Notes under the pieces: generated by a model
What the model was told of the DNA's origin: nothing
What the model saw: only the letters and a program-made list of their open reading frames with translations
Database searches by the model: none
Translations under genes and position numbers: made by a program
Origin: Chlorobiota bacterium
Lineage (GTDB): Bacteria; Bacteroidota; Ignavibacteria; Kapaibacteriales; NICIL-2
Reading direction: 5' to 3'
Length of the DNA stretch: 64,000 nt
NCBI GenBank assembly: GCA_044228285.1
Contig: JBGAVD010000006.1
Location: 66,077 to 130,076, forward strand
Shown here: piece by piece, positions 7,616 through 56,364 of the stretch
Layout of the letters: each line of letters begins with the position of its first letter
Numbering within the stretch: the stretch's first letter is position 1

Positions 7616-7813
7616 AGTGAAATGATATGGTTGTGAAGAGTCAGCTGTCGATGCCTGAGAAAAAGTTGCGCGACCTTGTTGTTGCCTTGAAAACATAGCT
7701 GAGTTGCCAGCCATCCGTCCACTCGCAGCATTTCGCACAGGAACTTTCTGTTGTCTTCAAAACTATTCTTCCACTATTGCCTCACTGTTCCTTCACTTTT
7801 ACGATTCAGTATG

Positions 7814-7869
7814 CTAGGAAACAACTAGGTAATACTTTTGTTGCGAGAGCATAACATTTGTTTACCTAG
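7814..7869. promoter_or_regulatory. Candidate OmpR/PhoB-type (Pho-box-like) sites upstream of the giant phosphatase
   Basis: 11-bp direct repeat CTAGGAAACAA/CTAGGTAATAC (7814-7835) plus an inverted copy TTTACCTAG (7861-7869), in the divergent intergenic region. Confidence 0.35.
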
Positions 7870-7983
7870 ACAATCTTCAAGCTGTCTAAACCCACAACCC
7901 GCAGAACTCTATTCACGCACTGCAGGTACTCTTTGGCTCAGGCTCAACTGTCCTCTTACACTTCATTTACAGAAAACGCGCTT

Positions 7984-8406
7984 ATGTCATCTCAAACCTT
8001 AGTGATTCTTTTTGATGGTGATTGCGCTTTCTGTTCAGGTTGGGTGCGTTTTCTCGCGGAGAGAGATCCACACAAGAGATTTCGATTCCTCTCTTTGCAA
8101 TCGCCCTCAGCAGCTTCGCTGCTTCAGGCAGAGCATGTACCAGAAGGCGTTGACTCTATCGTAGTCTGGTCAGAGAACAGGCTTTACATTGAATCCGAAG
8201 CAGTGCTCCGCATTGCAAAGGAGCTTGGGTTTCCGTGGAAGGTTGTGGTGCTGGGACGCGTGGTCCCTCGTGCGTTGAGAGATCTGCTCTATAGGTGGGT
8301 TGCACGACATCGACACTCTCTTTCGAGCTTTGGCGCGAGCTGCGTCATCAATGACCCAGCTGTGCGTTCACGACTAATCAATGATCTATCCGAAGTATCC
8401 CTCTGA
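7984..8406 (+). CDS. DCC1-like thiol-disulfide oxidoreductase (DUF393 family)
   Basis: ILFDGDCAFC (DxxCxxC), LQS, DSIV, RDLLYRWVARHR. ATG at 7984 preferred over TTG at 7933. Confidence 0.9.
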   Translation: MSSQTLVILFDGDCAFCSGWVRFLAERDPHKRFRFLSLQSPSAASLLQAEHVPEGVDSIVVWSENRLYIESEAVLRIAKELGFPWKVVVLGRVVPRALRDLLYRWVARHRHSLSSFGASCVINDPAVRSRLINDLSEVSL

Positions 8407-12491: not shown

Positions 12492-12605
12492 CCTATCCCC
12501 TTTTCTTGGTGAAGCGGCAAAATACTGAAGACTGAGGGTACGTTGGATGTGAGGCTACTGCGGTCGGCGCTCTGAGATGGATTTTCCAGTCTACAGCTAA
12601 CGAGT

Positions 12606-13372
12606 CTAGCTTGTCACTGCCGTTGCCGCAACGTATCCAATAGCGTCGCGCTTGAAGAGTGCAAAGTCGTATTGCGCTTCACCGTTGAAAGTGACAAATC
12701 GCCGGTCATCCACGTAGAGTTGACCGAGGCCTGCATATTGCTCGGCTTGTTTGTCACTGCTGTTGCTTGTACCCAAGAATGTGCGGATGTTCTGGTAGTG
12801 TCGGTTAACCAGATCTTGTACCAGTTGTGACATAGGATTCTCGTTTCGCAATGCAAACAGTGCATTCCGTATCTCGTTTTGCTCCTCGATGAGCAAGCTG
12901 TACTAGCTTTCTGACATGCTGAGCTAAGCCTTCTCGGATTGCTCAACTTAGCGGTTTCGGTATTCCTCTACGGCTTCGTCGCGTATCGCTTGTGCCTGGG
13001 TACAAATGAAGCCTTGATCGAGTTTATGTGGCTCCATGATAACGTGTCCTTGAAGTCGGTGAAGAGTTGGCTCAATTGCACCTAACAACGCGTTTAGTCA
13101 ATCACACTCCTGCTCAAGCCGCAGAGCATGTTGCTTTAGTGCTGTTGCGAGGTCAAACGAACATAGAGGATGCGCGCAATTTCCATTAAATGAAAATCGA
13201 GTTCCTGCTAAGAAAGAAGTTGCTGCAACCTCGAGAGCTCCTATTCACCATAAAGTCGGTAGTCAGCTAAGCTACGCGACTCCAGTTATTATCGTCTCTC
13301 CTTACCGTAAAGGTGCAGCATACGCATAATGATCCCTTTGCTATCGCCGACCTTTTGTACTGTGTATCGTAT
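12606..13372 (-). pseudogene. Decayed MerR-family (TipA/Mta-like) regulator with TipAS C-terminal domain
   Basis: The 5' part translates as RYTVQKVGDSKGIIMRMLHLYGKERR**LESRSLADYRLYGE*ELSRLQQLLS*QELDFHLMEIARI, a MerR HTH with stops. The 3' fragment VQDLVNRHY..YAGLGQLYVDDRRF..FALFKRDAI is TipAS-like. Confidence 0.8.
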
Positions 13373-13513
13373 AGTGACCGTGGTGCAATGTGACGTAAAA
13401 GACTGTGCTGAGGAGTTCGAGAGCAAGACTATTGTCTGACCTTAGGTGAGGTTCTTGAGAATAATGTGATGAAGAAAAAGGTATCGGAGGCTAGTGCTTA
13501 TGAGAGTTGTAGC

Positions 13514-13603
13514 TACCAGGTTCGCGGATCGCGCGGATGACACAGATCTGATCGGCGAATTCAGTGGCTGCCTGGTACTGCGGATACCGCAGATGACACG
13601 GAT
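13514..13603. repeat. Short REP-like element with 9-bp-period (C/T)(G/A)C(G/A)GAT motifs
   Basis: Heptamers at 13523/13532/13541 and 13579/13588/13597; TACCAGG (13514) and CCTGGTA (13571) form an inverted pair; lies just past the DUF1566 gene stop. Confidence 0.55.
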
Positions 13604-13619
13604 TTGTTACAATCTGAAC

Positions 13620-14840
13620 CTACCAGTGTAGAACGGCAAACGTCAATCTCCTACTCGTGGTTTTACTATTCAATATCAGTATGTAGATGCCGTTATTCAA
13701 GTCTCGACAATCAACACGCGATTGTGCAACGCCGTCGTATACAAGCGTTCCAAGCATATCAACGACTTGCATTTGCACGTCATTCAACTGAGTTTCATGA
13801 GGTACTACTAAGTATTCACTAGCTGGATTGGGATATACACCCATCACGCCCTGATCGCTTTGCAGCACATCAGTTCTTGAGTCACCTCCTCGCACGCAGA
13901 TCACTGCATGTTTGAGTGTCTTGGGATCATAGGAACTCAAACCGAAGGACCTCATGTCAACAAACCAGGCATTCGCGCTTTGTTTGTACTGAGCAGTGGA
14001 GGACCAGTAGCGAGTTGATAGTGTATTGACAAAGAGGTTTGTATACATGGCCGGCGCATTACGGGTACGGTCAACGATGCTGCACAGCTCTTTAACGTTT
14101 GGCAAACGCCAGTCGCTATGTCCGGCAGCCGTGAGGTTCTCTGCAGTACTCAATGCTTGCTCCCAACTGAGGGTGTCCGTCGAGAGTACCTTCTGCCACA
14201 TCAAGTCCGTTAGCTTGTCGCTGATGGTACCGTCTCCGTTGTCAACGAAGTGATCAACCACGGGAACAGCGTTGGCATCGCGCACAGCTCGCACATGAAA
14301 TTTCTTGTTACCGCCAGCACTAATCGTTTCTGTTTTCTGGTGCGCTCCGGATCCTCCTCCACTATTCGTCACCCATACTTTGTTGGCGTCGTTGTATTGT
14401 CGCTCGGAGGTCCACCAATATTCAGCAGAGGCTGCACTAAACACCGACACATCCATTGCGGGATTCAATCGATCGAGATTTACGATGCTTAGTGCCTCAA
14501 GAAGGGTTGGGAGACGCCAGTTGGTGTAGCCGGCGAGACTAAGCGTGTCGACGTATGTCTGCGCGCTCTCGACCGACATCTCACCGCCGTCTTCTCTCTG
14601 CCACATGAGTGTCGTCACGGTATCCGTCACTGTTCCATCACTATGCACTTGATAGACCGGCATGTTGATGCGATAATCACTGTCTTCACCAAAGGTTGCA
14701 GTATTATTCGTGGTCTGTCCACTATCTGGCCAACGCACCATGCTTTTGGCTACTTGCTGCGCAGAAAGGTCTAATGAGCACAGACCGAACGCTACGAGCA
14801 CTATGATAGATATTGGACGAAAGAGCTGTTGATCGAACAT
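13620..14840 (-). CDS. Secreted protein with two DUF1566 (Lcl C-terminal-like) domains and T9SS C-terminal domain
   Basis: Two copies of DGT(V/I)xD..T.LMWQ..W/V..A..GY/H.(N/D)WRLP..E..YW(W/S)S..VR; signal peptide; YPNPAS..GIYIL C-terminus. Confidence 0.88.
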   Translation of the reverse strand: MFDQQLFRPISIIVLVAFGLCSLDLSAQQVAKSMVRWPDSGQTTNNTATFGEDSDYRINMPVYQVHSDGTVTDTVTTLMWQREDGGEMSVESAQTYVDTLSLAGYTNWRLPTLLEALSIVNLDRLNPAMDVSVFSAASAEYWWTSERQYNDANKVWVTNSGGGSGAHQKTETISAGGNKKFHVRAVRDANAVPVVDHFVDNGDGTISDKLTDLMWQKVLSTDTLSWEQALSTAENLTAAGHSDWRLPNVKELCSIVDRTRNAPAMYTNLFVNTLSTRYWSSTAQYKQSANAWFVDMRSFGLSSYDPKTLKHAVICVRGGDSRTDVLQSDQGVMGVYPNPASEYLVVPHETQLNDVQMQVVDMLGTLVYDGVAQSRVDCRDLNNGIYILILNSKTTSRRLTFAVLHW

Positions 14841-14918
14841 GTTGATGCATTGGAATTAACAGTTAACAGCAGCACGGAACGCGATGCACTTTGAAAAGAC
14901 TCTTGAGAAGAAGCCCCC

Positions 14919-15530
14919 TTATATCCACAAGAGCATTGCTCGCTCTATGCACCAAAATAATGCGATGGCTGCTACAGCACTGTTTATTGGACGCAGAAGG
15001 GTTGAGGTTTCCTTGCGCAGCAGCGTCCACAACGCAAGGAGCGTCGCGCTACAGAGGATGACAACGACTTGCGCAAGTTCAACGCCAATATTGAAGCCAA
15101 CCAGTGTTGGAGCGAGCTCGCTGCCACTCAGACCTAGGTTTGCCAAACCAGTTGCAAAGCCGAGTCCGTGGAAAAGCCCAAACGCAAAGATCATCAATCC
15201 TCGCAGCCACTTCGTTGCTGACTGCGCTTCCAAAGTGGTATTGCTGAGATTCATCAGCGCAATAACAACTATGGAAAGTGCTATTATTGGCTCAACAATG
15301 TGACTGGAAACATGCACGAATCCCAATGTTGATAAAGCGAGAGTGCAGCTATGCGCAAGTGTAAAAATGGAACAGAGTACGAGACTGCTTCGCAAGCGCG
15401 CCGTCATGAGCGTCAGCGAAAGAATAAACAGTATATGATCAATGCCGCGCGGTAGCACATGCATGAATCCTTGGACAGCCGATGTTTCAAAGAGTGTTCC
15501 CATGCTATTCAATGAATAACTTCTTGACAT
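14919..15530 (-). CDS. HupE/UreJ-family membrane protein
   Basis: GFMHVL..GIDHILF, FTLAHS, VEPIIALSI, FGLFHGLGFA, GFNIGVELAQ. Overlaps the upstream gene end; the true start may be the M at ~15503. Confidence 0.9.
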   Translation of the reverse strand: MSRSYSLNSMGTLFETSAVQGFMHVLPRGIDHILFILSLTLMTARLRSSLVLCSIFTLAHSCTLALSTLGFVHVSSHIVEPIIALSIVVIALMNLSNTTLEAQSATKWLRGLMIFAFGLFHGLGFATGLANLGLSGSELAPTLVGFNIGVELAQVVVILCSATLLALWTLLRKETSTLLRPINSAVAAIALFWCIERAMLLWI

Positions 15531-17112
15531 AGGTCTTACGTACGGTGCTCAAGCAGTAGAGATACAATCCCTTGCCCAAACCGCTGAGTTCAATCTGCTC
15601 TTCGAAATTCTGTGCGCTATACACACGCTCACCTGCGCAATTGTACAAGCTCACAGATTGCACGGTAGTTGCGGGGATACTACTCCCGAGTTGTACTCGA
15701 CACCGCGCACTCGCTGGGTTTGGGAGGAGATGAAGGTCAACACTCAGGTCTTCATTGTCATCGACGCCGCTTACACTCAAGCACGGGGCCGAACTCTTAT
15801 ATGTCGAAGTTGTGGTAGAGCCATTGGGACTTATGAAGTTGAAGGTATAGTTGCCGTTAGCAGTCCATGAATAAGCAACCTTGTAAGTACCTCCGTTGAG
15901 AGTATAACTCAACGTATATCCCATCGTTCCATTCGGCGTACAATCAGTGATCACCGCACCTTTGAGCGGCGTGAGTGATGGGCGCACAGGATGCGCAGCT
16001 GCTTGTGGAACAATTTGATGCGTGGTGTCTTCAGTCACTTGTCCCACCATTGTTGCAACCATATATGGTTTTGCTTGCGTTCCATGATAGTGATATACAC
16101 CATCATTACCGAGGTGCCCGTGATTAGCATCGAGTGATTGCATCGCCGTTCCATCAGGTTCATACGCTCCATACACAGCAAAGCCATCGAGGGCAAAAGC
16201 AATGGGAAGTGTTTTTGGACTCGTGCCATACAGGTGTAATGGAGCAACGTGGTAGTGGTAATCGTCGGCGCGGCCGCAGTGCCCGCCCCAGTTATCCAAC
16301 TGCCCATCGACCAAAGCATCCACCCCTGTGTTTGTATAAGGATTAAAAATGGATATGCCATTCACCGCCAAAGCAATTGCTCCGCGCGAGAAATGATCGG
16401 CATTCACAGGAATCGGGCTCGCCGACATCACTGGGTTCAGAGGAATACTCCATGCATTGCTTCCTGTGTAGCACTGCGGTAGCGGCACTTGCTGCTGCCA
16501 ACCCGTAATGCCAGCCATCATTGGGTGCTCCGGAATACCATTGTTTTCAACGAGGTAGTATTGTGTGTTCCACGAGGTAACAAGGTGTTTTTTGTACGGC
16601 GCAAATGCGGAATCGAGAAAGGCAGTGCTAGTCTTTGATAGACGCAGCGCAACGCGTTCACGAAAGCCATAGAAGCTTGCGATGGTGGCAATTAGACCAA
16701 GCGTCAACACCAATCGACGTTGCTTGTATGAGAGCAATGTTAGTGCGAGCACAAGGGCTACGAAGACGAATCCAAGCATCTGTGCAAGGATTTGTTCATC
16801 GCTAACTTTTGCGCTACTCAGCTCCGAGTTGAATTCACGATTGATGGTTGCGATGCGTGCGTATCGCTGAAGCACATACTGCTGATCAGCATCGCAGAGA
16901 TCACTGAGTTGTACTCGTTGAATATGCGTAGCATCAATCTCTAAACTCACGTTTTGGTCTTTCAACATGAGCAGCGAGGCTTGTAGCGCTGTGCCATTGC
17001 GCAGGGTCCACGAGCGGACGGCAATCGTGCCAATGCCGGCTGTGTGGGCATGCAGGACACTACCAACGCACAGGATGGCAATGATGAGGCAGAGAGTGAA
17101 TCGAGTTTTCAT
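15505..17112 (-). CDS. YHYH-domain protein with N-terminal SHD1-like domain, two internal hydrophobic segments and T9SS C-terminal domain
   Basis: GIPEH, GAIALAVNG, DNWGGHCGRADDYHYH, FALDGFAVYG, LDANHGH..YHYHG; N-terminal RSWT..LSDLCDADQQYV; C-terminal LPNPAS..KGLY..KKLFIE. Confidence 0.88.
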   Translation of the reverse strand: MKTRFTLCLIIAILCVGSVLHAHTAGIGTIAVRSWTLRNGTALQASLLMLKDQNVSLEIDATHIQRVQLSDLCDADQQYVLQRYARIATINREFNSELSSAKVSDEQILAQMLGFVFVALVLALTLLSYKQRRLVLTLGLIATIASFYGFRERVALRLSKTSTAFLDSAFAPYKKHLVTSWNTQYYLVENNGIPEHPMMAGITGWQQQVPLPQCYTGSNAWSIPLNPVMSASPIPVNADHFSRGAIALAVNGISIFNPYTNTGVDALVDGQLDNWGGHCGRADDYHYHVAPLHLYGTSPKTLPIAFALDGFAVYGAYEPDGTAMQSLDANHGHLGNDGVYHYHGTQAKPYMVATMVGQVTEDTTHQIVPQAAAHPVRPSLTPLKGAVITDCTPNGTMGYTLSYTLNGGTYKVAYSWTANGNYTFNFISPNGSTTTSTYKSSAPCLSVSGVDDNEDLSVDLHLLPNPASARCRVQLGSSIPATTVQSVSLYNCAGERVYSAQNFEEQIELSGLGKGLYLYCLSTVRKTYVKKLFIE

Positions 17113-17222
17113 GTTCGTTCCTTAGTGTGTGCTTAGACACTCATTGTCATTGATCTTCAGCAGACTTTTCTTACGCGTGCGCGTTGTGGCGAGTTCCAAA
17201 CCGTTCAGCAGCAACAAGCCAC

Positions 17223-18983
17223 TTAGTGACGAACGATGACGGTCATGCTTTGTCGACCGGCCTTTGACGTAACAAGCTCACAGATGTAGCTGCCTTCCGG
17301 AACCGCGACGCTATTGTCGTCTGTGCCATCCCACAACATCGTGAAGTTCCCGGCATCACAACACATGTTGTTGGCAAGGGTGCAGACTAGGCGACCTTCC
17401 GTGCTGAATACTCGTACGCTCAACGATTGTGGTTCTTTGATGCTGAACTGGATATGTGCGGGACCGGCTGTTGGATTTGGGTACACGAGTTCGTCTGCAT
17501 AGTCGCTATTCCAGAGAATAGGAACGGAGCTGCTGAGCGAATCATAGCAGTTGCGCTTTCCGATGTAGTATGAAGCAGAGACGTCTTTGTTATGTCGTGT
17601 TGCGTTTTCGCTTGCGCTGAGATACGCGCGCACGTAGTCGACCTTTACGCCTTCTGAGGAAACATTCACGCGGAGGTGTCCGGCGTTCGGAAGAATCGTT
17701 CCTTCAAAGTACCCATAGTCTTTTGCTTGATTCGCAGATTGGAAGTTAGGTAAGCTCGGTTGCGGACACTCCTGATAAATCAAACAGTCCTTTTTCTGTT
17801 GTCCGAAAAAATGGTCATGTCCATGAAAGAATGCGGTAACGCGGTGTTCTGTCAATAACTCTTTAATCGGCTTGTACCAACCTGGTCTATTCGCTGCAAA
17901 TCCCTCTGTACCATCTAAGTTCTTTCCACCCCATTCATAGAAGTTTGCAAACTCTACGCCACCACGACCATTAGGATCACCGCCGATTATCTGATGAGCA
18001 AACACAAAAGTGAATGGCGATGAGTTTGCTTCCAACGTGCGTTTGAGCCAATCATATTGCACCTTACCCAGTGTCCAACGCCAGCCATGGAGTGAGTCAG
18101 GTTTAGGAGAAGTGTACCAATAGGGATCGAGTACTATGAAGAGTGCATCGCCCCAATGCCATGCGTAGTAGTTCTCGCGTTGTCCGACGAAAGGATGCAC
18201 GATGGTATCGCCAGTGTAGAAGTCATTTGGTGCGGGATTTGGGAAGAACTTCTTACGATCATTCGTTCCCCAAACCGCAACGTTTTCTGTTTTGCCATTG
18301 AGGTTCCAACCAGATTCCCCTTCGTGATTTCCCAGGCTTATATACAGCGGTACACTGTGACAGATTCCTTCGTAAAAGGAGCGCAACAGGCGGGAGCGGG
18401 AAGTTACTGTATCGTGTGTTAGCTGTCCGGCGGTGTTCTTCAACTTATCCGACATCAAGAAGTCACCAAGATCAAGCATGAAGTCCGGTTGATCATCGAG
18501 TTGGTTTTGGAGACAGCGACGATATAACGTTGAATCACTGTTTTCATCTAAGTGTGGATCGGCTTGAATGACAAAGTTGAAACTGGAACCTGCTTTGCGT
18601 GCTGTGTGGAAGGTGTGTTCCGGACGCAGCGTGCTATCACTTGCACCCGGCTTGCGATAACAAACACGATAGTAATACATCGCATCAGCTAACAAGTTCT
18701 CGAGCAAGATCTTTGTGGAACTGTCTGCCAGGGCGCTTTGCCATGCGGTTTGCGTTGTGTACGCACCACTAGTCGTGCCAAAAAGCACCTTGATTTCTGC
18801 TTCCTCGTTAAACAGACAATGGACAGTTATGCTATGATCTGTTGGTCGCGCAATCATCTCCGTATGACGCAACTTCTGCGACTGTGCAGCCTGTACGAGT
18901 ATAAGGATCATTGCGAGATAGATCACTATCGATAGCATCGAGAATGTGCTTCTTTGCTGTACCCGGCTGGTGATGGTCTTCAT
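17223..18983 (-). CDS. Secreted calcineurin-like metallophosphoesterase (FN3-like N-terminus, T9SS/FlgD-type C-terminus)
   Basis: ADPH, LGD, GNHE, FAH, HGHDH motifs; signal peptide ..AQS-Q; YPNPT..WDGTD..GSY. Confidence 0.88.
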   Translation of the reverse strand: MKTITSRVQQRSTFSMLSIVIYLAMILILVQAAQSQKLRHTEMIARPTDHSITVHCLFNEEAEIKVLFGTTSGAYTTQTAWQSALADSSTKILLENLLADAMYYYRVCYRKPGASDSTLRPEHTFHTARKAGSSFNFVIQADPHLDENSDSTLYRRCLQNQLDDQPDFMLDLGDFLMSDKLKNTAGQLTHDTVTSRSRLLRSFYEGICHSVPLYISLGNHEGESGWNLNGKTENVAVWGTNDRKKFFPNPAPNDFYTGDTIVHPFVGQRENYYAWHWGDALFIVLDPYWYTSPKPDSLHGWRWTLGKVQYDWLKRTLEANSSPFTFVFAHQIIGGDPNGRGGVEFANFYEWGGKNLDGTEGFAANRPGWYKPIKELLTEHRVTAFFHGHDHFFGQQKKDCLIYQECPQPSLPNFQSANQAKDYGYFEGTILPNAGHLRVNVSSEGVKVDYVRAYLSASENATRHNKDVSASYYIGKRNCYDSLSSSVPILWNSDYADELVYPNPTAGPAHIQFSIKEPQSLSVRVFSTEGRLVCTLANNMCCDAGNFTMLWDGTDDNSVAVPEGSYICELVTSKAGRQSMTVIVRH

Positions 18984-19006
18984 TACAGATTGTGAAAGTT
19001 GATGTA

Positions 19007-20809
19007 TTATCGCAGAATACTAATTGGTGTAACAGCGCGCTGGCGGTCGTCGATCATGGAGAGTAGATACATTCCGTTTGCAACTGCGCTTATGTCCATG
19101 AGAGAACTTATATCAGCAGCACTCACGATACCGCGAGCTACTACTTCGCCATGGATATTGTAGAGCTCGAGTTGTCGGTTGTGATTGGTTGCGTCACTAC
19201 AACGTACTTCGAGTTCATCGAGCAGTACCCGACAGCGCACGAGTGGCATTGCGTTTCTTGTGTATCCGTCAACACGTGTTGTGCGATGTTGCACTGTATA
19301 GCTATGGGCTACTTCTCGATTATGATGTATGCCAGAAATAGTATCGGCGGGAAGGTATGCGCGTACAAAATCGACTGTAGCTGATGTTGGATTCACGTCA
19401 ACCCGGATATGGCCTGTTCCGTCGAGCGTAAGGCCTTTGTATGCATCTGCATTTGCCAGCACACCTATGGTGTAGGTTGAATCGGCTGGCATTGGTACTT
19501 CTTGATAGACAATCCCGTCGAGTTCTTCGCGAGCGTAGAGGTGGTCGTGTCCTTGAAAGAAGATGTTCACGCCATATTTCACCATGAGTTGGTGGATGGG
19601 CATATCCCAGCCTGGACGCATCGTGTCGAATTTCCACTTTCCATTATCATAGCCACCCCATTCGAATCCCGGAGCTACAGCGATACCACCACGACCTTGT
19701 CCGCGGTTGTGGTGACAGAACACAAATTTGTGCGCTGCACTTGAGCCGGCAAGAGTTTGCTTGAGCCAGTCGTACTGAACTTTGCCGAGCGACCAATCCC
19801 AGTTCGTCGGTTTCTCGTTGACATCGCAATCACGATAGACGTCAAGCACCACAAAGAGTGCGTCGCCCCAGGTCCATGCGTAGTAGTTCGCTGGGAGGTC
19901 AATGCCAAAACCTTCCGAGACAGCATTGCCAGTGTAAAAGTTGTTGGGCATTGGATTTGGGTAATAGTATTTGCGCCAAAGCGTACCGTAGACGGCAATG
20001 TTGTTCGGCGGGTTTTGTTTGAGGTAGTAGCCGTTTTCTCCTTCGTGATTGCCGAGGCACACATAGAACGGCATGGAATGACATACAGCGCTCAAGTATT
20101 GCACATAGTCTTTGTGCAACGCTTTCATGTCGTCACTGGTGGTAGTAGTTGGCGTATGATCGTCACCGAAAATATCGCCGAGGCTTAACAGAAAGTCGGC
20201 GGAGTCGCGCGCTTCGTTGTCAAGCGTAATCTTATACATATCTCGCACACCTTTTTTGTCGTAGAGGTGTTCATCTGCTTCCACAAGAAAGCGGAACGAG
20301 GAGCCAGGACGACGCTGAGTGTGAAAGGTGTATTCACTCGTCGAGCTGTAGTTGCTTGAACCGTGGGTGGCGTAGTGAATTTGATAGAAGTATCGTGTGT
20401 CTGGTTTGAGATTAGTGAAAAGAACCAAATCCGGAACGTTTGCCAAACTGGCTCGAGGAGGAATAGTGTCGGTGTATGTGCCGGCTTTGAGACCGTACAC
20501 ACATTCAAAGTCCATTGCTTGTGAGAACAGCACACTGGCAGTTACTGTGTTATCGGTCGGACGACCAAGGATGATCATTGGAGCTTGGGCGTCGAGCTGT
20601 ACCGTGTTCGCAAAGAAAACCATACAGAATGTACCAAGTAGTTTAGCGACGGTGTACAGAATATCGAGTTGTTGCTTCTGTGCGCGTAGAGCAAGAGCCA
20701 TAGCGAAAAGGATAGGTTTGGAAGTTGAGTCTGTGGATAAGACGACATTTCTGAATGCATCTGGCGCACTGTGCGACATTTTTCTTTTCAGCGACTCATA
20801 CAGCACCAC
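19007..20809 (-). CDS. Second, paralogous secreted metallophosphoesterase with T9SS-like C-terminus
   Basis: ADEH, LGD, GNHE, FCH, QGHDH; shares NYYAW.WGDALF.VLD and W.LGKVQYDWLK.TL with its neighbour. The true start is probably downstream (e.g. M at 20701). Confidence 0.85.
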   Translation of the reverse strand: MVLYESLKRKMSHSAPDAFRNVVLSTDSTSKPILFAMALALRAQKQQLDILYTVAKLLGTFCMVFFANTVQLDAQAPMIILGRPTDNTVTASVLFSQAMDFECVYGLKAGTYTDTIPPRASLANVPDLVLFTNLKPDTRYFYQIHYATHGSSNYSSTSEYTFHTQRRPGSSFRFLVEADEHLYDKKGVRDMYKITLDNEARDSADFLLSLGDIFGDDHTPTTTTSDDMKALHKDYVQYLSAVCHSMPFYVCLGNHEGENGYYLKQNPPNNIAVYGTLWRKYYYPNPMPNNFYTGNAVSEGFGIDLPANYYAWTWGDALFVVLDVYRDCDVNEKPTNWDWSLGKVQYDWLKQTLAGSSAAHKFVFCHHNRGQGRGGIAVAPGFEWGGYDNGKWKFDTMRPGWDMPIHQLMVKYGVNIFFQGHDHLYAREELDGIVYQEVPMPADSTYTIGVLANADAYKGLTLDGTGHIRVDVNPTSATVDFVRAYLPADTISGIHHNREVAHSYTVQHRTTRVDGYTRNAMPLVRCRVLLDELEVRCSDATNHNRQLELYNIHGEVVARGIVSAADISSLMDISAVANGMYLLSMIDDRQRAVTPISILR

Positions 20810-20886
20810 TCAAGGAGAATTCGCGGTAACACATATAGCTGGCAGTGCTACGTCCCTCTGCTTTTCAGCTGCGCATCATGTGCGAT

Positions 20887-22134
20887 TCACTCTCCAGTCT
20901 CCACAACAAGCTTCTTGCTGATCCACTCATGTGCGTTTAGTAGAAGTACATAGTATATACCTGGGACCGTTTGCGGAAGAGTAACGGTGGTGAAATCACG
21001 ATCCAAATCAAGGACTATCTGACCGAGCATATTGACTATGACTAGTCGCTGCATATCCGCGACGGCATTGCGATCCTTGAACTCTAAGCAAAATTCTCGG
21101 CGTGTTGGATTCGGAATGATTCGGAGCTTGTCTCCGTCAGTGGCATCATGTACTGAGGAACTGGCAATGCCTATCATCTTCCGCACAATGACCAGGTTGT
21201 CGAGTATGACATTGGTGCTCCATATGAACTCTGCGTCGTGAGTGGCGTCATCAAAGACTTGCGTGAAGTTGGTATAGGCAGGCTTATTGTCAACTCCAAT
21301 CTCAGCATTGGTATATGTTGTTGCGTCTGGCCATTGTGTGGCATCAAAGTCAGAGCTCATCCAGTTGGTAGGCACAGGCCAATGAAGCGCATAGAACTGC
21401 GAGCCATTGGCGACGTCTTGAGTGCTGCAGTTGTTGGAGAGTCGGAGGTTGGCGACTTCAGTTGGGCACGTAAGATCGCTAATAGGTGATGTATAAAAGG
21501 TCTGTGCTTTCCAGCTCGCATCCGTGATATCAATCACTGCATTTGAAGCATCTTTGAACGCGGCAACTATTCCCCCATCTCCATAGTGATAGGCAAAGCC
21601 ATTGCTATTTTCTGCTCCTAAGCCCAAGTGCTCCTCCCAATCAACGAGTAACAGCGCTACCAGAAATGGCTTACGAACGCGGAAGCGCACGATGCTTGAG
21701 TTGAATTGTGTGTAAGGAACTCTGTCTTTGCCAATTGCCACACCATTGACATACATTTCAAAGTAGTTGTCCGCAAAGATGAAGGCGGTGATGACTTCGC
21801 CATCTGGATCGACAGTGATTATATCCGTTCCATCAAGTGAATTCAACGCAGCACTAACATTTGCAAAGGTTTTACCAGTGCAACTATTGTGCAAGTCAGA
21901 GGCAAAAGGAAAGCCAGGATCGGTGAAATGCGTGGCCGCTGGGACTGTCCATACGGTTTTGTCGAGTGCGACAATTGAGCCAACACCACCAATACGACCA
22001 CCAGCGCAGTTGTATAAGTTTGCTGTCTCAGTCGTTGCTAAGCCCTGCGACACCGAAGCACTTCCTTTGTATTGGGCTTGAGTTGCGAAGCAACTCAAGA
22101 GCAGAGCAAGTCCTATGAGTAGTATTCGATGCAT
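20887..22134 (-). CDS. Secreted Cys/Asp-rich beta-sandwich protein of unknown function with T9SS C-terminal domain
   Basis: Start at 22134 gives the signal peptide MHRILLIGLALLLSCFATQA-Q; FADNYFEMYVNG; IPNPT..NMLGQ..GIYYV..KKLVVE. Confidence 0.8.
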   Translation of the reverse strand: MHRILLIGLALLLSCFATQAQYKGSASVSQGLATTETANLYNCAGGRIGGVGSIVALDKTVWTVPAATHFTDPGFPFASDLHNSCTGKTFANVSAALNSLDGTDIITVDPDGEVITAFIFADNYFEMYVNGVAIGKDRVPYTQFNSSIVRFRVRKPFLVALLLVDWEEHLGLGAENSNGFAYHYGDGGIVAAFKDASNAVIDITDASWKAQTFYTSPISDLTCPTEVANLRLSNNCSTQDVANGSQFYALHWPVPTNWMSSDFDATQWPDATTYTNAEIGVDNKPAYTNFTQVFDDATHDAEFIWSTNVILDNLVIVRKMIGIASSSVHDATDGDKLRIIPNPTRREFCLEFKDRNAVADMQRLVIVNMLGQIVLDLDRDFTTVTLPQTVPGIYYVLLLNAHEWISKKLVVETGE

Positions 22135-22162
22135 GCGTTGAGTCCTCGCTGTAAAGCAATAG

Positions 22163-22789
22163 TTAGTGAGGAGCGTTGTTCGGACGATCGTCACGTGGAC
22201 GTTCGTTGTCGTCTTGACGACCTGGCGGACGACCATCACTGCGACGACGTCGATCGTCACGTCCCCCATAGCCTCGCTTGCCATGTCGCGGATTCGGTCG
22301 AAAGTAGTCGCGAATATCTTTCACGAGTCTTTCAAACTTCTTCGCTTGTTCTTTTGTACAGATTTCTTTGAAGGCCTTGGCTTGATCGTAGCGTAGCATT
22401 TCCATTGCATACTCATTGTCGGCCACGCGTCGAGCCAATGCTTGCACAAGAGCATCATCTGTTGAGGCATGGAACATCGATGCATTCATGGAGTCGCGCT
22501 CATCGCGGATGTGTTGTGAAAGCTCACGTTCCTTTATGCGAAAGTCAGCGCGCAATTGTTCTATTCGTCGACATTGGTCATCTGTGAGATTCAGTTCAGA
22601 CTTGAGCACATCAGAAAGCTCAGCTTTTTCCTCGGTCGCAGGACGTTGCTCTTCGCGTTGAAGTTGCGCACTCGGCACATCATTGTGTTTCCATTCTTGC
22701 CATACTATTGCCCCAACAATGCAAGCATTAATCAGGACCAAGGCCATGACTAAGCGGAGTAATGTTCGATTTTGTTGAATAATATCCAT
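22163..22789 (-). CDS. Spy/CpxP/ZraP-like periplasmic (heavy-metal sensor-type) protein
   Basis: N-terminal TM; LNLTDDQ and ICTKEQ (LTxxQ motifs); helical; low-complexity RD/GRPP tail. Confidence 0.8.
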   Translation of the reverse strand: MDIIQQNRTLLRLVMALVLINACIVGAIVWQEWKHNDVPSAQLQREEQRPATEEKAELSDVLKSELNLTDDQCRRIEQLRADFRIKERELSQHIRDERDSMNASMFHASTDDALVQALARRVADNEYAMEMLRYDQAKAFKEICTKEQAKKFERLVKDIRDYFRPNPRHGKRGYGGRDDRRRRSDGRPPGRQDDNERPRDDRPNNAPH

Positions 22790-22800
22790 AGAGCTCTACA

Positions 22801-23121
22801 TCAGTGTGATTGAATAAGGAACTCTTTAGCAATAGCGGAGTAGGCTGCAGCCTGTGCTTCTGTGTAGTCCGGCGTTGAAGGCGCATCATGCCGTAACACT
22901 TGCTTTGCGGCCCATATGTTCGCGATGACCACCAGGCAGAGACTCAAGTTGGTCAGCAACGCACGAGTTTGCGACGGCTTGCGCGAACTCCTCTCCTGTG
23001 CACGTTGAAGCAGCGTCGAAGTCCATTCGTCACGCACAGCCAAGCTTGGTAACTGCTCGAATTCTTCCAAGCTTTCGCGCAGAAGTTGTTTGTTGATCGT
23101 AGTGTGTTTTGAGTGTTTCAT
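22801..23121 (-). CDS. Small single-TM protein, putative anti-sigma factor
   Basis: Directly downstream of the ECF sigma; cytoplasmic N-terminus, one TM (LLTNLSLCLVVIANIWAA). Confidence 0.65.
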   Translation of the reverse strand: MKHSKHTTINKQLLRESLEEFEQLPSLAVRDEWTSTLLQRAQERSSRKPSQTRALLTNLSLCLVVIANIWAAKQVLRHDAPSTPDYTEAQAAAYSAIAKEFLIQSH

Positions 23122-23136
23122 GAGAGTCTTAGTGTA

Positions 23137-23165
23137 TTGGACGATTAATTAAGATAGAACTAGCG
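23137..23165 (-). promoter_or_regulatory. Candidate ECF-type promoter for the downstream operon
   Basis: CGCTAG-N16-CGTCCAA immediately after the sigma stop codon; a CGTC -10 element is typical of ECF promoters. Confidence 0.3.
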
Positions 23166-23167
23166 CT

Positions 23168-23761
23168 CTACGAATCGTTGCTGAGAACTTTTCGCAATTC
23201 GCTACTCAATTTCTGCTTCGCCCGATAAATCATTGAGTCCACTGCTACAGTTGTAGTCTTCATGATTTCCGCGATTTCTTGGCTTGTACATCCTTCTATT
23301 TTGCTCAAGCTGAATGCCACGCGCTGGTTGTCGGGTAGCGTATTGAGTAGTTTCTCCAGTGCTTTCATTCGTTCGGCTTCGCGGAGAGTGGCATCGGCTG
23401 CGGGACCGCCGGGAAGGCTATCGCTCAGCTCGTCAACCGACAAAAACTTCGTAAATGCCTCGAAGCGTTTGGCACGCTTCCGTCTTTTTAGCTCATCCAG
23501 TGAGCGACTTACAGCTATGCGGTACAGCCAGGTAGACAGCTTTGAATCTCCGCGAAAACTGTCTATAGATTGCAGCACTTCGATAAACACTTCCTGCGCT
23601 ACATCCTCTGCATCTTGCTGGTTCAACAACATCCGGTAGCAGGTGTTTATCACGGAACGCGCATGCAGACGCAACAACTCAGCATAGGCTGCGTTATTCG
23701 CTCGCTTCAATTCACGTACAAGTACCGCTTCTTCTATCATTGAAACATCTGTAACAGGCAA
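23168..23761 (-). CDS. ECF RNA polymerase sigma-70 factor
   Basis: DAEDVAQEVF, FRGDSKLSTWLYRIA (region 2); LPDNQR..EIAEIM..VDSMIYRAK (region 4). Confidence 0.95.
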   Translation of the reverse strand: MPVTDVSMIEEAVLVRELKRANNAAYAELLRLHARSVINTCYRMLLNQQDAEDVAQEVFIEVLQSIDSFRGDSKLSTWLYRIAVSRSLDELKRRKRAKRFEAFTKFLSVDELSDSLPGGPAADATLREAERMKALEKLLNTLPDNQRVAFSLSKIEGCTSQEIAEIMKTTTVAVDSMIYRAKQKLSSELRKVLSNDS

Positions 23762-23827
23762 GCATCTCTACCGCCTTATCTCAAGAGTCTATTTCTTACA
23801 CGCGCGCTCCGCGTATGTCGGATTATA

Positions 23828-23856
23828 GGAACAAAAAACATGGCTTTTGGTTACAG
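23828..23856 (-). promoter_or_regulatory. Candidate ECF promoter TGTAAC-N16-TGTT upstream of the sigma gene
   Basis: Minus strand CTGTAACCAAAAGCCATGTTTTTTGTTCC; the same geometry recurs at 63967-63995. Confidence 0.45.
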
Positions 23857-23874
23857 CCGATGAGAGCTAGGCTG

Positions 23875-24527
23875 CTACGAAGCGAGTTGTGGTAGAAGTT
23901 CAAGCACTTTCAGCGGCTTCTCGGCAATGAGTTCCACGCCATGCTCGCGTAGTACGTCCGCGCTTCCATAGATATAGCTCCCTCCGATAGCAGCCATAGT
24001 CTGGGCACGCGCCCTAAGCGCATCATTCTTCTTTTCACCAAACATAACGCACGAGCTGCTATGCAGCGAGTGCAATGAAAGAACTTCTCTGATGACCTCT
24101 GCTTTGTGGTGCGGGTGTTATCGATGTTACTGACGACCACTTCGCGGAACGAGTGACGCAAGCCAAAGTGCAGCAGCATCTGTGCACAAAAGACTGTTGG
24201 CTTTGAACTTGCCAAGTAGATGTTGTGTCCGGCTATGCTCAACAGTTCACGTAACTTCGGAATGCCGTCATACACAAGGTTTTCAAAGAGCACGAGCTCA
24301 TACTAATACTCGCTCTAATACTCGACGGCGGTGTTGCCTTGCTCAAGGCTCAGATGGTGGCATAGCAGAAAGGAGTCAAGTAGTGGAAGTGCTATGAACT
24401 GCCGCAACTCTTCTGGTCGCCGATCTTCAATTCCCATCTTCCCAACTGCATAACACACGGAGTTGATGAAGCCCTCTTTTGGGTTGGTCAAGTTTCCATC
24501 AAGATCGAACAACAACGGACGAGTCAC
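23875..24527 (-). pseudogene. Disrupted HAD-superfamily hydrolase (Gph/5'-nucleotidase-like)
   Basis: LLFDLDGNL motif I; two in-frame TAG stops (AVEY*SEY*YELVLFEN); ASSKP; frameshift near 24100 before KAEVIREVL; motif IV decayed (MFGEKKND). Confidence 0.85.
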
Positions 24528-25846
24528 GATTTAGTCGTGCCTCCCGAGATACGCATCAGACGCTCGCATATCTGCGTTTTAGCTACCGGATGCTTGCACA
24601 CATCTACTGCTCTCTGCAAGCAACGAAGTTGTTCGCTACTCCCTTCCTCCTGTAGTTCCGCTTCAACCAGATAGCTATAGTGGTCGTTGAGAACAAGCTT
24701 CTCTTGACGGAGTTTTTCGAGTGCCGCTTTTGCTATCGTATTTCCTTGTACCTTGGAGAGAGCGAGGATGCGATTGAGTGCGACAAGTGGGCTCTTTTTC
24801 TGAAGCAGTAGAAGGTCATAGAGAGCCAGGATATTCTGCCATTTTTCTGGACTGTCGACATGTTGGGTATGCCAGTAGGCAATGGTGGCTTCGAGATGGA
24901 AGTCGCTGAGCTGCGAACCTTGCGAGGCATGATGTAGATACCAGACGCCTCGTTGAATGAGTTCTGCATCCCACAAGGATGGATCTTGTTGCGCATACAG
25001 AATCAACTCTGCAGTCGCGCTGCGACGTGCCGCGAAGCGAGACGACTGAAAGCACATCAGCGCGTAGAGTGCATGCACTGATGGACTGTTACCTAGCTTG
25101 TGCTTCATCAGGAGTTCCACAAGATGCATGGCTTCTGCGCAGAGGTCTTCACGCAGAATAGCGTCGTTGCTTTCGGAGTAATATCCTTCGCTGAAGAGGA
25201 GGTACAAAGTTGTACAGACAGTATGCAGGCGTGTTGCTAACTCTGTATTGGAGGGTAAGGTGATACTAATATCGCTGTCTCTGAGAATCGCCTTTCCGCG
25301 TCTTAGTCGACGTTCAACCGCATCTGTGCTACTCAAGAGAGCTGTTGCTATTTCTGCGGCATTGAGTCCGCAAAGCAGCCTCAACGACAACGCGATCTGC
25401 GTTGCTTCTGGTAAACGTGGATGACAGCATACAAAGAGCATTGAGAGCTCGGCATCGAGAATCTGCTCGTCTGACCAATCCCAGATTTCGTTTGTGTGTA
25501 GGTCTTGGTTAAGACTCTCTTGCACGAGTTGCGGAGCAACTCGTTGTTGAAAGACAGTCTGTCGAAGCCATGCATTCGTCGCCAAGTTCTTTGCTACAGT
25601 GTACAACCATGCAGTTGGTTGAGGCGGAAGACCCTGGTAGGTCCAGCGTTCCAAGGCCCGAAGAAAAACCTCGCTGACGATATCTTCAGCGAGGTCCATG
25701 TACTCTGCTCCATAGCGTCTGCACAACATTGCGCAGATCCGCCGCGACTCCGTACGAAACAAGTGCGGTATTAATTCCGGGACCGCTGAAGTTTGAGCTG
25801 TCGCGGATGACGCTGCAACCGAAAGATGATGCTTAGTGGACTCCAT
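24524..25846 (-). CDS. ECF sigma factor with long C-terminal extension (ECF42-like)
   Basis: AEDIVSEVF..WLYTVAKN; MLFVCCHPRL; LYLLFSEGY; QDPSLWD; W..IL.LYD.L..SPLVALNR; translationally coupled to the YCII gene. Confidence 0.88.
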   Translation of the reverse strand: MESTKHHLSVAASSATAQTSAVPELIPHLFRTESRRICAMLCRRYGAEYMDLAEDIVSEVFLRALERWTYQGLPPQPTAWLYTVAKNLATNAWLRQTVFQQRVAPQLVQESLNQDLHTNEIWDWSDEQILDAELSMLFVCCHPRLPEATQIALSLRLLCGLNAAEIATALLSSTDAVERRLRRGKAILRDSDISITLPSNTELATRLHTVCTTLYLLFSEGYYSESNDAILREDLCAEAMHLVELLMKHKLGNSPSVHALYALMCFQSSRFAARRSATAELILYAQQDPSLWDAELIQRGVWYLHHASQGSQLSDFHLEATIAYWHTQHVDSPEKWQNILALYDLLLLQKKSPLVALNRILALSKVQGNTIAKAALEKLRQEKLVLNDHYSYLVEAELQEEGSSEQLRCLQRAVDVCKHPVAKTQICERLMRISGGTTKS

Positions 25847-26186
25847 CGTCGGCCGCAATGAGACGCACTTCGACGGTGTTGCCCATACCTTGGAGCACCG
25901 GACATCCCTTAGCATGTTCCGCTGCTTCATCGACTGTTGCACAACGCACAACAATGTAGCCGCCAATGGTTTCCTTGATATCACCAAATGGCCCGTTAGT
26001 CACGGTCTTGTCAGAATGCACCACTCGCGCTTCACTTTGTGGCAAACCACAGCCTCGCACAAAAGCGTTCTGCGCTGCTATGCCTGCAATCCAATCCATG
26101 GTCTGTTGCATCCAGACTTGCATCTGTTCTGGTGAAGCAATCTTAGAACCGTCTTCGTGACGAAAAATCAACATATACTCATTCAT
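25833..26186 (-). CDS. YCII/DGPF-family protein
   Basis: VTNGPFGDIKETIGGY, A..CP, VEVR; typical partner of ECF42-type sigma factors. Confidence 0.9.
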   Translation of the reverse strand: MNEYMLIFRHEDGSKIASPEQMQVWMQQTMDWIAGIAAQNAFVRGCGLPQSEARVVHSDKTVTNGPFGDIKETIGGYIVVRCATVDEAAEHAKGCPVLQGMGNTVEVRLIAADDGVH

Positions 26187-55972: not shown

Positions 55973-56364
55973 ACTCAAAAGCTGTAGCGCGCGGTCTTTT
56001 GATGTGAGCTTGTATTCTCTGTCGTAGTCCCCTTTTGCCACGAACAAGGACGGTCGCGCTTTGCCTTGATGGTATTGCGTCAGGAGATTTTTCTTACACG
56101 AGCGCCGCTGCGCGTCGCACGGGCCTCCTGCTCTCTCCAGGCCTCGTCGGAATCCCCGGCCTAGGCTGTCCCTTCCGTATATTGCCTGCAATTGTCTTGA
56201 CCCGAACTACGTCTCTCAGTAGAGCTAGGAGCTCAGAATGCTCTTGGCTTGAGTATACAGGGTTTTTGGTCAAGAATACAGACATCAACTTCGCTGGCAA
56301 CTCCGTTTAAACGTCTTCGCATCGACGTTTAGCTCTGAGTACAAACGGCTCATCAACGCGCACT

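Follow-up and report, generated by a model that had tools for sequence, protein, structure and literature searches.

A co-oriented block of nine genes

A stretch of 64,000 nucleotides (nt) from the genome of a Chlorobiota bacterium (contig JBGAVD010000006.1, positions 66,077 to 130,076; hereafter 'the window') contains, between positions 13620 and 23761, nine open reading frames (ORFs) that all lie on the minus strand and follow one another at close spacing. The genome in which it resides comprises 4.3 Mb in 14 contigs and is rated 100% complete. A first-pass annotation of the window had described nine co-oriented, closely spaced genes with a set of named domains, and that description was borne out by the ORF coordinates and by comparison with the Pfam and NCBIfam libraries. 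The block is one copy of a gene cluster that is conserved in Bacteroidota and is centred on two phosphoesterases (PE1 and PE2) and a long YHYH protein (YHYHL).

The block is headed by a gene with a TTG start for a sigma factor of the extracytoplasmic function (ECF) type (197 amino acids; 23168..23761), recognized by Pfam Sigma70_r2 and Sigma70_r4_2 and by NCBIfam TIGR02937. It is followed, after 46 nt (this and the following distances being taken from the ORF coordinates), by a gene for a small single-pass membrane protein of 106 amino acids (22801..23121), a candidate anti-sigma factor, and after a further 11 nt by a gene for a membrane-anchored periplasmic protein of the LTXXQ (Spy/CpxP/ZraP-like) kind (208 amino acids; 22163..22789), which matches Pfam LTXXQ and Metal_resist. 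These three genes are referred to below as the triad. The next gene encodes a secreted protein of no named family, termed here the beta protein, which is recognized through its C-terminal profile and comprises 415 amino acids when read from the ATG at 22134 (20887..22134); with that start it lies 28 nt from the LTXXQ gene, and the longest possible ORF (from 22284) overlaps it. PE1 (564 amino acids from the ATG at 20701; 19007..20701) occupies an ORF that extends to 20809, so that the gap preceding it amounts to 77 nt with the GTG at 20809 or 185 nt with the ATG at 20701, and its paralogue PE2 (586 amino acids; 17223..18983) begins 23 nt further on; both match the Metallophos family. After 110 nt follows YHYHL (535 amino acids; 15505..17112), in which a signal peptide, a His residue and an SHD1-like domain are succeeded by a hydrophobic helical hairpin, then by the YHYH domain and a further beta domain, and finally by a tail of the type IX secretion system (T9SS). 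A stand-alone membrane permease of the HupE_UreJ_2 family (PF13795; 194 amino acids from the ATG at 15503; 14919..15503) either overlaps the YHYHL gene by 26 nt, if the ATG at 15530 to which its ORF extends is used, or is separated from it by 1 nt, if translation begins at 15503. The last gene, located 78 nt beyond, encodes a secreted protein with two DUF1566 domains, recognized by the Lcl_C profile, and a T9SS tail (406 amino acids; 13620..14840).

The first-pass annotation had further assigned C-termini of the T9SS type to five of these products (the beta protein, PE1, PE2, YHYHL and the DUF1566 protein). All five match the Por_Secre_tail profile at E<=2e-4 (YHYHL with 34.3 bits and the DUF1566 protein with 41.1 bits), but the curated cut-off for the sorting domain is passed by three of them: YHYHL and the DUF1566 protein in both Pfam and TIGR04183, and the beta protein in TIGR04183 only. 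Their TIGR04183 scores are 31.4, 34.1 and 24.3 bits, respectively, against a cut-off of 23, and the tails of PE1 and PE2 remain below the cut-offs in both libraries, at 17.6 and 21.2 bits.

Recurrence of the cluster in other genomes

A protein search with PE2 identified 4142 relatives at E<=0.001 among 7999 candidates scored, and the 120 best, which were listed, are mostly 55-70% identical to PE2. A scan of one genome per species located 541 stretches that encode a PE2 relative, and a protein search with YHYHL yielded more than 4000 relatives, so that both families are large. The best 80 of the 541 stretches were retrieved together with as much as 10 kb of flanking DNA (such stretches carry labels of the form L003 or L005), and their content was established by tblastn with the nine window proteins and by clustering of 978 ORFs. 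Many of these loci end at contig ends, and counts are therefore also given for the subset of 31 loci in which 6 kb or more remain to the left and to the right. More than one phosphoesterase gene is found in 71 of the 80 loci (30 of the 31), YHYHL in 62 (24), a DUF1566 gene in 53 (21), the beta gene in 30 (10), HupE_UreJ_2 in 22 (11), a related sigma factor in 11 (7) and an LTXXQ gene in 9 (5). YHYHL lies on the same strand as PE2 in 58 of 59 cases and DUF1566 in 46 of 47, the sole exception being L080, in which a half composed of triad, YHYHL, HupE and DUF1566 is divergent; the most frequent gene orders correspond to PE1-PE2-YHYHL-(beta)-DUF1566-(HupE).

The nine-gene arrangement thus exceeds chance, as its core recurs in co-oriented form in 80 loci of other genomes, and the conserved co-occurrence for which the first-pass annotation had proposed a neighbourhood analysis is present. 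That annotation had, however, treated the nine genes as a unit, and this part of its proposal did not survive: the conserved core consists of PE1, PE2, YHYHL and DUF1566, and the beta gene, HupE_UreJ_2 and the triad are accessory to it. Within a sample of 401 genomes of the phylum, phosphoesterases of this family occur in 11 and YHYHL in 10, with both in 7, the phosphoesterase alone in 4 and YHYHL alone in 3; among the seven genomes with both, the genes are adjacent in three and lie 12 kb apart on one contig in one more. The genomes of that sample are kin, and no statistical test is therefore claimed. Literature searches found no paper in which the cluster is described; the supplementary neighbourhood tables of PMC12537917, which lay outside those searches, may list YHYH or Bacteroidota cases.

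The phosphoesterases and the proteins fused to them

PE1 and PE2 score 34.9 and 32.0 bits, respectively, against Metallophos (PF00149; cut-off 21.5). All eight canonical metal-binding positions (D142, H144, D174, N219, H220, H330, H389 and H391) are in place and are invariant in 83 PE1 and PE2 sequences, and a tree resolves the two proteins into cleanly distinct clades with a long branch between them and a support of 1.0. The alignment and the tree mark PE1 and PE2 as ancient paralogues, each with a complete two-metal site. The AlphaFold2 (AF2) model of PE2 has a predicted local distance difference test (pLDDT) score of 90.7, and a fold search with that model placed PhoD (2yeq; E 2.5e-19, TM-score 0.53/0.59) at the head of its matches, followed by plant purple acid phosphatases and a phytase. 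Purple acid phosphatases possess a GDxxY motif, the Tyr of which binds Fe(III). At the corresponding place PE2 reads GDFLM and PE1 reads GDIFG, such that the Tyr ligand is absent from both.

Several relatives of the cluster encode two of its products on one chain. A protein of 1025 amino acids (P0002) carries a PE1 domain (57% identity) followed by PE2; four loci (L014, L015, L058 and L059) encode fusions of DUF1566 to PE2 of about 872 amino acids; and a further two (L005 and L016) encode a fusion of the beta protein to DUF1566 of 719 amino acids. The Lcl_C family (PF07603), which the DUF1566 protein of the window matches over two stretches with 176.7 bits (cut-off 34.9), is likewise found on 6 of the 120 listed PE2 relatives. 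The beta protein is recognized by Pfam and NCBIfam through its T9SS tail only, falls among unnamed or T9SS-tail clusters in the ESM Atlas, and has no counterpart below E 0.9 in a sequence search of solved structures. Since they occur as fused chains, the sequences argue that PE1, PE2, DUF1566 and the beta protein act in physical contact. No function has been established for YHYH, DUF1566 or the beta protein, and the conserved cluster and its fusions provide these proteins with a testable context and point to the parts that touch.

YHYHL and the HupE_UreJ_2 permease

The YHYH family (PF14240) is matched by YHYHL with 49.3 bits against a cut-off of 25, with positions 2-110 of the 193 in the profile being covered. 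An alignment of 46 relatives of YHYHL displays invariant DDYHYH and YHYH motifs, and the YHYH domain is 39% identical over 105 amino acids to that of a canonical YHYH protein encoded elsewhere in the same genome. These proteins make up a divergent YHYH subfamily. In all 46 sequences a His residue stands immediately after the hydrophobic leader, and position -1 is occupied by A, S, G or C; the cleavage site that would expose it was predicted by rule only. Beyond this His lies a domain of approximately 60 residues that resembles the SHD1 domain of Sla1 (2hbp; Z 7.8, root-mean-square deviation 2.6 over 58 residues), a middling score, and that carries PF03983 in 4 of the 120 listed YHYHL relatives. 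This domain is followed by two hydrophobic helices joined by a loop rich in Lys and Arg, the YHYH domain, a beta domain and the T9SS tail. The AF2 model of YHYHL has a pLDDT of 86.9, and its tail superimposes on solved T9SS tails with Z 9.9-10.2. A sequence search of solved structures with YHYHL gave matches through the tail only, and two fold searches returned no solved match to the YHYH domain; both of the latter were dominated by the tail and barely probed that domain, and no new fold is claimed for it. Metal binding by YHYH proteins, which the first-pass annotation had assumed, is a prediction, in print as well: the passages of PMC7824862 that concern the family treat it as a predicted zinc-dependent hydrolase, and those of the preprint 10.64898/2026.10.18.759936 present it as a blank-slate target.

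The architecture of YHYHL varies among the loci, with the hairpin missing in L005 and L016 and the tail missing in L053, L054, L061, L069 and L081. The first four of the tailless loci (two metagenome-assembled genomes labelled Cytophagaceae, an Aquirufa and a Flectobacillus) also carry a gene for a PEBP-family protein between PE2 and YHYHL, and have no DUF1566 gene downstream.

The permease encoded beside YHYHL matches HupE_UreJ_2 with 143.6 bits (cut-off 24.5). An alignment of 22 such sequences contains four His, one Asp and two Glu as invariant columns, and every one of the 22 begins directly with the first membrane helix, which identifies the permease as a stand-alone protein. Among the 22 loci that encode it, it lies directly 3' of YHYHL in nine, as it does in the window, with gaps of 0-9 nt in eight of those nine, and it follows DUF1566 in ten. 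PF13795 is found on none of the 120 listed YHYHL relatives. A predicted complex of YHYHL (residues 23-450) with HupE gave a score of 0.00 against a mark of 0.32; having been run without controls, it counts neither way.

This pairing recalls a published system. Franco Cairo et al. (2025; PMC12537917) describe two 'anglerase' types, Ang-1 and Ang-2, in which domains with an N-terminal His are fused to HupE/UreJ-2 (PF13795) permeases. According to the sections of that paper devoted to these proteins, the N-terminal-His domains bind Cu(II) best (Kd 62-74 nM), are proposed to fish metal ions for the permease, with capture and uptake rather than export as their role, are reported as feeding HupE/UreJ-2 in two phyla, and, in the Ang-2 type, frequently have metallophosphatases as neighbours. 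By analogy, the YHYHL-HupE pair of the window looks like a split version of these fusions, equipped with a different His-bearing domain. In two further stretches, L101 (1351-2733, minus strand) and L102 (886-2208, plus strand), proteins of 440-460 amino acids were observed in which a signal peptide, a His (within 'HPMP'), an extracytoplasmic domain and a C-terminal HupE_UreJ_2 permease are joined; these are anglerase-like fusions in Bacteroidota, a phylum that the same sections of PMC12537917 do not name for Ang-1 or Ang-2. The gene upstream of the fusion in each of these two stretches ends in a conserved His-rich stretch.

The sigma factor triad and a recurrent promoter motif

The sigma factor scores 68.9 bits with Sigma70_r2, 54.6 bits with Sigma70_r4_2 and 102.5 bits with TIGR02937 (cut-off 42.9); with regions 2 and 4 only, in a chain of about 200 amino acids, it has the make-up of an ECF (group 4) factor. 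The 106-residue protein encoded next matches nothing in Pfam or NCBIfam and contains one central hydrophobic segment. All nine loci with a triad display an ORF of 90-130 amino acids with a single transmembrane segment between the sigma and LTXXQ genes, and these small ORFs have two motifs in common, F[ED]xL..P..W at the N-terminal end and [KR]E[LF][LF]I at the C-terminal end; by its position and architecture the protein would be an anti-sigma factor. The LTXXQ protein matches PF07813 with 32.5 bits (cut-off 24.3) and Metal_resist (PF13801) with 35.6 bits (cut-off 29.2), and has an N-terminal hydrophobic segment. When a profile built from 11 such sequences was compared with solved structures, the best matches were 5ihf, Spy (3oeo) and ZraP (3lay); CnrX was not among the matches at E<=10, and the conserved columns of the protein contain no His. 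Of the two proposals that the first-pass annotation had made for this part of the block, the combination of sigma factor, anti-sigma-like protein and periplasmic protein was supported, as it recurs beside the cluster in 9 of the 80 loci in differently named lineages, with the sigma relatives at the head of the cluster; the likening of the third protein to the CnrX sensor found no support in the profile comparison.

A dyad search over 57 upstream regions yielded the motif ATTAAACC-N15-[AC]GTCTAA (also written ATTAAACC-N15-AGTCTAA), for which a matrix was derived from 13 sites. Promoters of the ECF type are marked by AAC in the first block and GTC in the second. Upstream of the first phosphoesterase gene, 33 of the 72 loci carry the motif at a score of at least 16, as do 20 of the 59 loci that were held out; the same score is reached by 10 of 2000 random windows and by none of 271 regions upstream of other genes. 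It further precedes an unlinked YHYHL gene in L021 and the sigma gene of the triad in L003 and L057, whereas none of the nine triad loci has it immediately ahead of PE1. Such a distribution is in keeping with an ECF sigma factor that regulates its own gene and drives the cluster, and a motif of such specificity offers a handle for mapping the regulon and for finding its inducing signal. The site in L003 aligns with a degenerate stretch approximately 210-245 nt upstream of the sigma gene of the window, which is too weak to call.

Other sequence elements were observed in and around the block. The one match of 16.4 to the motif in the window (55968-56000), 365 nt before a TamB-like gene, was taken as chance. 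A second candidate promoter, GGAAC-N15-18-CGTA, was rejected: it has one match in the window, upstream of YHYHL, where 1.16 are expected, and of its 63 matches in the 80 loci none lies in intergenic DNA upstream of a cluster gene, with one located inside an ORF upstream of a phosphoesterase gene. The regions upstream of the sigma gene and of YHYHL (23795-23827 and 17160-17200, minus strand) have in common a 16-nt stretch, identical at 14 of 16 positions and ending in GTAAGAAA, which could be an organism-specific promoter element or could have arisen by chance. A terminator-like hairpin lies on the minus strand at 13216..13232, approximately 390 nt 3' of the last gene; it was found by a consensus scan only and is weak, with 6 terminator-like sites observed in the region against 11.7 expected from shuffles. 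Two imperfect direct copies of an element of about 40 nt, each with a short GC-rich hairpin, are discernible by eye just 3' of the DUF1566 stop codon (about 13530-13610, minus strand), and an Rfam scan of positions 12500-24600 gave no match at E<=0.1. The genes that flank the block look unrelated to it: upstream, at 24524-26186 on the minus strand, lies a gene for an ECF-like sigma factor with DUF6596, preceded by one for a YCII-domain protein, and downstream a gene for a BNR/LamG/PKD protein of 1326 amino acids.

Copper and sulfate-ester genes in the neighbourhood of the cluster

Genes for copper proteins (a multicopper oxidase, or MbnP and MbnH) belong to the same co-oriented block as the cluster in 12 of the 80 loci. 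The portion of PMC11951088 that deals with these two proteins describes MbnP as a copper-binding protein that is matured by MbnH. In some genomes the cluster extends upstream on the same strand through genes for a di-haem peroxidase, a T9SS multicopper oxidase, a T9SS sulfatase, a canonical YHYH protein and two AhpC/TSA-like thioredoxins. Four loci (L013, L044, L051 and L056) include a multicopper oxidase and an AhpC/TSA-like thioredoxin within the block, and in three (L013, L033 and L038) genes of all these kinds merge with the phosphoesterase cluster into one co-oriented block.

In the window's own genome these modules are kept apart from the cluster, on two other contigs. On contig 8 (L083:7181-13471), a paralogous triad of ECF sigma factor, small transmembrane ORF and LTXXQ gene heads genes for a canonical YHYH protein of 652 amino acids, which has a weak T9SS-tail match below the cut-off, and for MbnP and MbnH; a cluster with a TonB-dependent receptor is divergent to this block. 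The sigma factor encoded there is 34% identical to that of the window, and the block looks like a copper-related sister of the window cluster. On contig 9 (L097:3361-5729), a multicopper oxidase with a below-cut-off T9SS-tail match is immediately followed by an AhpC/TSA-like thioredoxin. The canonical YHYH proteins encoded beside MbnP/MbnH lack the N-terminal His in nine of nine cases.

Sulfate-ester chemistry also travels with the cluster. In L003, the closest relative, genes for a protein with an FGE-sulfatase domain (492 amino acids) and for an arylsulfotransferase (560 amino acids) lie between beta and PE1 (4846-8030); L078 contains two arylsulfotransferase genes before PE1, and a T9SS sulfatase is found in 11 loci.

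A model for the cluster and its alternatives

The best reading of these observations, to which a probability of roughly 0.5 is given, is that the cluster encodes a phosphoesterase machine of the cell surface, exported by the T9SS, that is furnished with its own metal-handling pair and placed under ECF control. PE1 and PE2 would act as one enzyme pair, since they are also found as a single fused chain, and DUF1566 and the beta protein, given their fusions to PE2 and to each other, would be ligand-binding (lectin-like) modules that keep the enzymes attached to a polymer of anionic or glycan type. The enzymes would cross the inner membrane by Sec, be loaded with metals in the periplasm, and then be moved by the T9SS to the surface, where they would liberate phosphate from organic phosphoesters. 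At the inner membrane a transition metal would be bound by YHYHL, by means of its N-terminal His domain and its YHYH domain, which is rich in His, and would be moved by the adjacent HupE, so that the two would correspond, as separate polypeptides, to the 'anglerase'-HupE/UreJ-2 fusions. The block would in this genome share a transcript with the ECF sigma gene and be controlled by the sigma factor, which the small membrane protein would hold until the Spy/ZraP-like protein detects metal or envelope stress in the periplasm and brings about its release. A metal theme is plausible in view of the predicted N-terminal His of YHYHL, the His-lined HupE_UreJ_2 permease and the copper genes in 12 of 80 loci, and the interpretation offered by the first-pass annotation is, taken as a whole, partly supported. 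If the enzymes mineralise organic phosphorus at the cell surface, the cluster would bear on phosphorus turnover by these bacteria. A bolder formulation, which is considered unlikely, holds that YHYHL and HupE constitute a third, two-polypeptide kind of anglerase, in which the N-terminal-His SHD1 domain and the YHYH domain would capture a transition metal at the inner membrane and pass it on, and that a single ECF regulon marked by ATTAAACC-N15-AGTCTAA couples this metal supply to a heterodimeric surface phosphoesterase that is aimed by lectin-like modules at a specific phosphorylated polymer. Were this formulation correct, the cluster would represent a metal-gated route of organic-phosphorus use, assembled from three families without known function.

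A number of observations weigh against the reading of the cluster as an ECF-controlled surface phosphoesterase machine. YHYHL lies on a different contig from the phosphoesterase gene in three of the sampled genomes, and YHYHL combines a helical hairpin of the inner-membrane type with an outer-membrane export tail, the presence of which on one chain the model does not explain. With the HupE of the window as query, two of five genomes whose cluster is without HupE gave no match. The window contains no good copy of the promoter motif (the best scores near the cluster being 11.6, inside PE1, and 9.8, upstream of the sigma gene), and the motif lies upstream of the sigma gene in only two of nine triad loci; the link between motif and sigma factor is consequently indirect. 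With respect to the enzymes, the PhoD threshold (PF09423) is not reached by PE2 (16.3 bits against 27) and PE1 has no match to that family, PE1 reaches 22 bits with Pur_ac_phosph_N against a cut-off of 30, and in sequence searches of solved structures the phosphoesterase profile matches only FlgD-like tails, the catalytic part of PE2 finding nothing below E 1.5. Because the scores stay below these thresholds and the Tyr ligand is absent, despite the likeness in fold, the phosphoesterases are best regarded as a distinct family with a PhoD/purple acid phosphatase-like architecture and a generic two-metal site, whose activity and substrate are suggested by the ligand set and the modelled fold. 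Finally, the sulfatase, FGE-sulfatase, arylsulfotransferase and multicopper oxidase neighbours in some loci hint at a wider or different chemistry.

The absence of the triad from 71 of the 80 loci and of HupE from 58 weighs in the same direction, and it is also what would be expected if there were no single nine-gene system at all, in which case three separately regulated parts (a general ECF triad for envelope stress, an operon of phosphoesterases, YHYH and DUF1566, and a metal permease) would simply be neighbours in this genome. The gaps of 110 nt before YHYHL and of 77-185 nt before PE1 could accommodate internal promoters, and the lack of the conserved motif in the window agrees with it. 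That explanation is nonetheless unlikely, as the triad adjoins the cluster in nine loci of several lineages, none of which carries the phosphoesterase-type promoter immediately ahead of PE1, which is what read-through into PE1 from upstream would predict; moreover, the motif precedes the triad sigma gene in L003 and L057, and the spacing between HupE and YHYHL is 0-9 nt in eight of nine adjacent cases.

Two further explanations place metal at the centre of the cluster. In one, the cluster belongs to a regulon for the acquisition and distribution of a transition metal, most likely copper, of which YHYH, HupE, MbnP/MbnH, the multicopper oxidase and the thioredoxins are the heart and the phosphoesterases are co-regulated clients or have another metal-linked role. 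The paralogous triad on contig 8, with its 34% identical sigma factor, at the head of a canonical YHYH-MbnP-MbnH series beside a TonB-dependent receptor speaks for this, as do the merging of all these genes with the phosphoesterase cluster in L013, L033 and L038, the copper binding of MbnP and its maturation by MbnH (as set out in the relevant portion of PMC11951088), and the preference of the published N-terminal-His domains on HupE/UreJ-2 for Cu(II) (as given in the sections of PMC12537917 on those domains). Copper genes accompany the phosphoesterase cluster in only 12 of 80 loci, however; PE1, PE2 and YHYHL are its most conserved and most tightly linked members, and the N-terminal His is missing, without exception, from the canonical YHYH proteins encoded beside MbnP/MbnH, so that this explanation appears distinctly unlikely. 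In the other, which takes up the idea of the first-pass annotation, the operon would respond to a metal signal, and phosphate set free by the surface phosphoesterases would precipitate the toxic metal outside the cell, while YHYH, HupE, the multicopper oxidase and the thioredoxin-like proteins handle the metal that enters the periplasm. Precipitation of metal phosphates driven by phosphatases does exist in other bacteria, and detoxification of this kind would account for a ZraP-like LTXXQ protein within the triad, for the complete active site in both enzymes, and for the multicopper oxidase, MbnP/MbnH and AhpC/TSA-like thioredoxins in the same 12 loci. It is the hardest of these explanations to sustain and is considered quite improbable: the LTXXQ protein has no conserved His, the fusion of lectin-like modules to the enzymes suggests a defined polymeric substrate over a bulk release of phosphate, and the nearest published HupE/UreJ-2 system is read by its authors, in the sections of PMC12537917 on its function, as one of metal capture and uptake.

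Relationship to known systems

The phosphoesterases of the cluster share with PhoD and the purple acid phosphatases (2yeq, 3zk4, 6giz and 4dsy) an N-terminal beta-sandwich joined to a metallophosphoesterase domain, at fold-search E values of 2.5e-19 to 2e-16, and both groups consist of exported proteins, the export of PE1 and PE2 being predicted. They differ from those enzymes in sequence (13-14% identity, with Pfam scores below the cut-offs), in their metal site, which is the generic D-x-H / G-D / G-N-H-E / H / G-H-x-H set without the Tyr of purple acid phosphatases, and in being encoded as an obligate pair of paralogues with T9SS-type tails.

CnrYXH-type modules are metal-sensing ECF systems with a short single-pass anti-sigma factor, in which the CnrX sensor holds a His/Glu/Met metal site. 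The triad resembles them in its three components: an ECF sigma factor, a very short anti-sigma-like protein that crosses the membrane once and has no zinc-binding motif, and a helical periplasmic protein with a membrane anchor. It departs from them in that this third protein belongs to the Spy/CpxP/ZraP (LTXXQ) family and lacks a conserved His, and in that the sigma gene comes first. With Spy, CpxP and ZraP, in turn, the LTXXQ protein shares the LTXXQ motifs, Pfam scores above the cut-offs and profile matches to the Spy and ZraP structures; unlike them, it has an N-terminal membrane anchor, and its gene stands third in a sigma/anti-sigma module instead of being the target of a two-component system. 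The MbnP/MbnH pair is found beside YHYH proteins and the same kind of triad (L083; L013, L021 and L040), but is absent from the window cluster and pairs with canonical YHYH proteins that lack the N-terminal His.

The closest parallel is that with the anglerase-HupE/UreJ-2 systems, as these are portrayed in the sections of PMC12537917 cited above. In both cases a PF13795 permease is paired with an extracytoplasmic domain that carries a conserved N-terminal His in its mature form (the cleavage being predicted for YHYHL), and, as with Ang-2, metallophosphatase genes lie nearby. In the window, the permease is separate and the His-bearing domain is part of another, much larger protein; that domain looks SHD1-like, as opposed to the Ig-like beta-sandwich of Ang-1, and the protein possesses a helical hairpin, a YHYH domain and a T9SS tail in addition. 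If the analogy is sound, a split, anglerase-like form in a further phylum, again situated beside metallophosphatases, would extend the discovery reported in PMC12537917.

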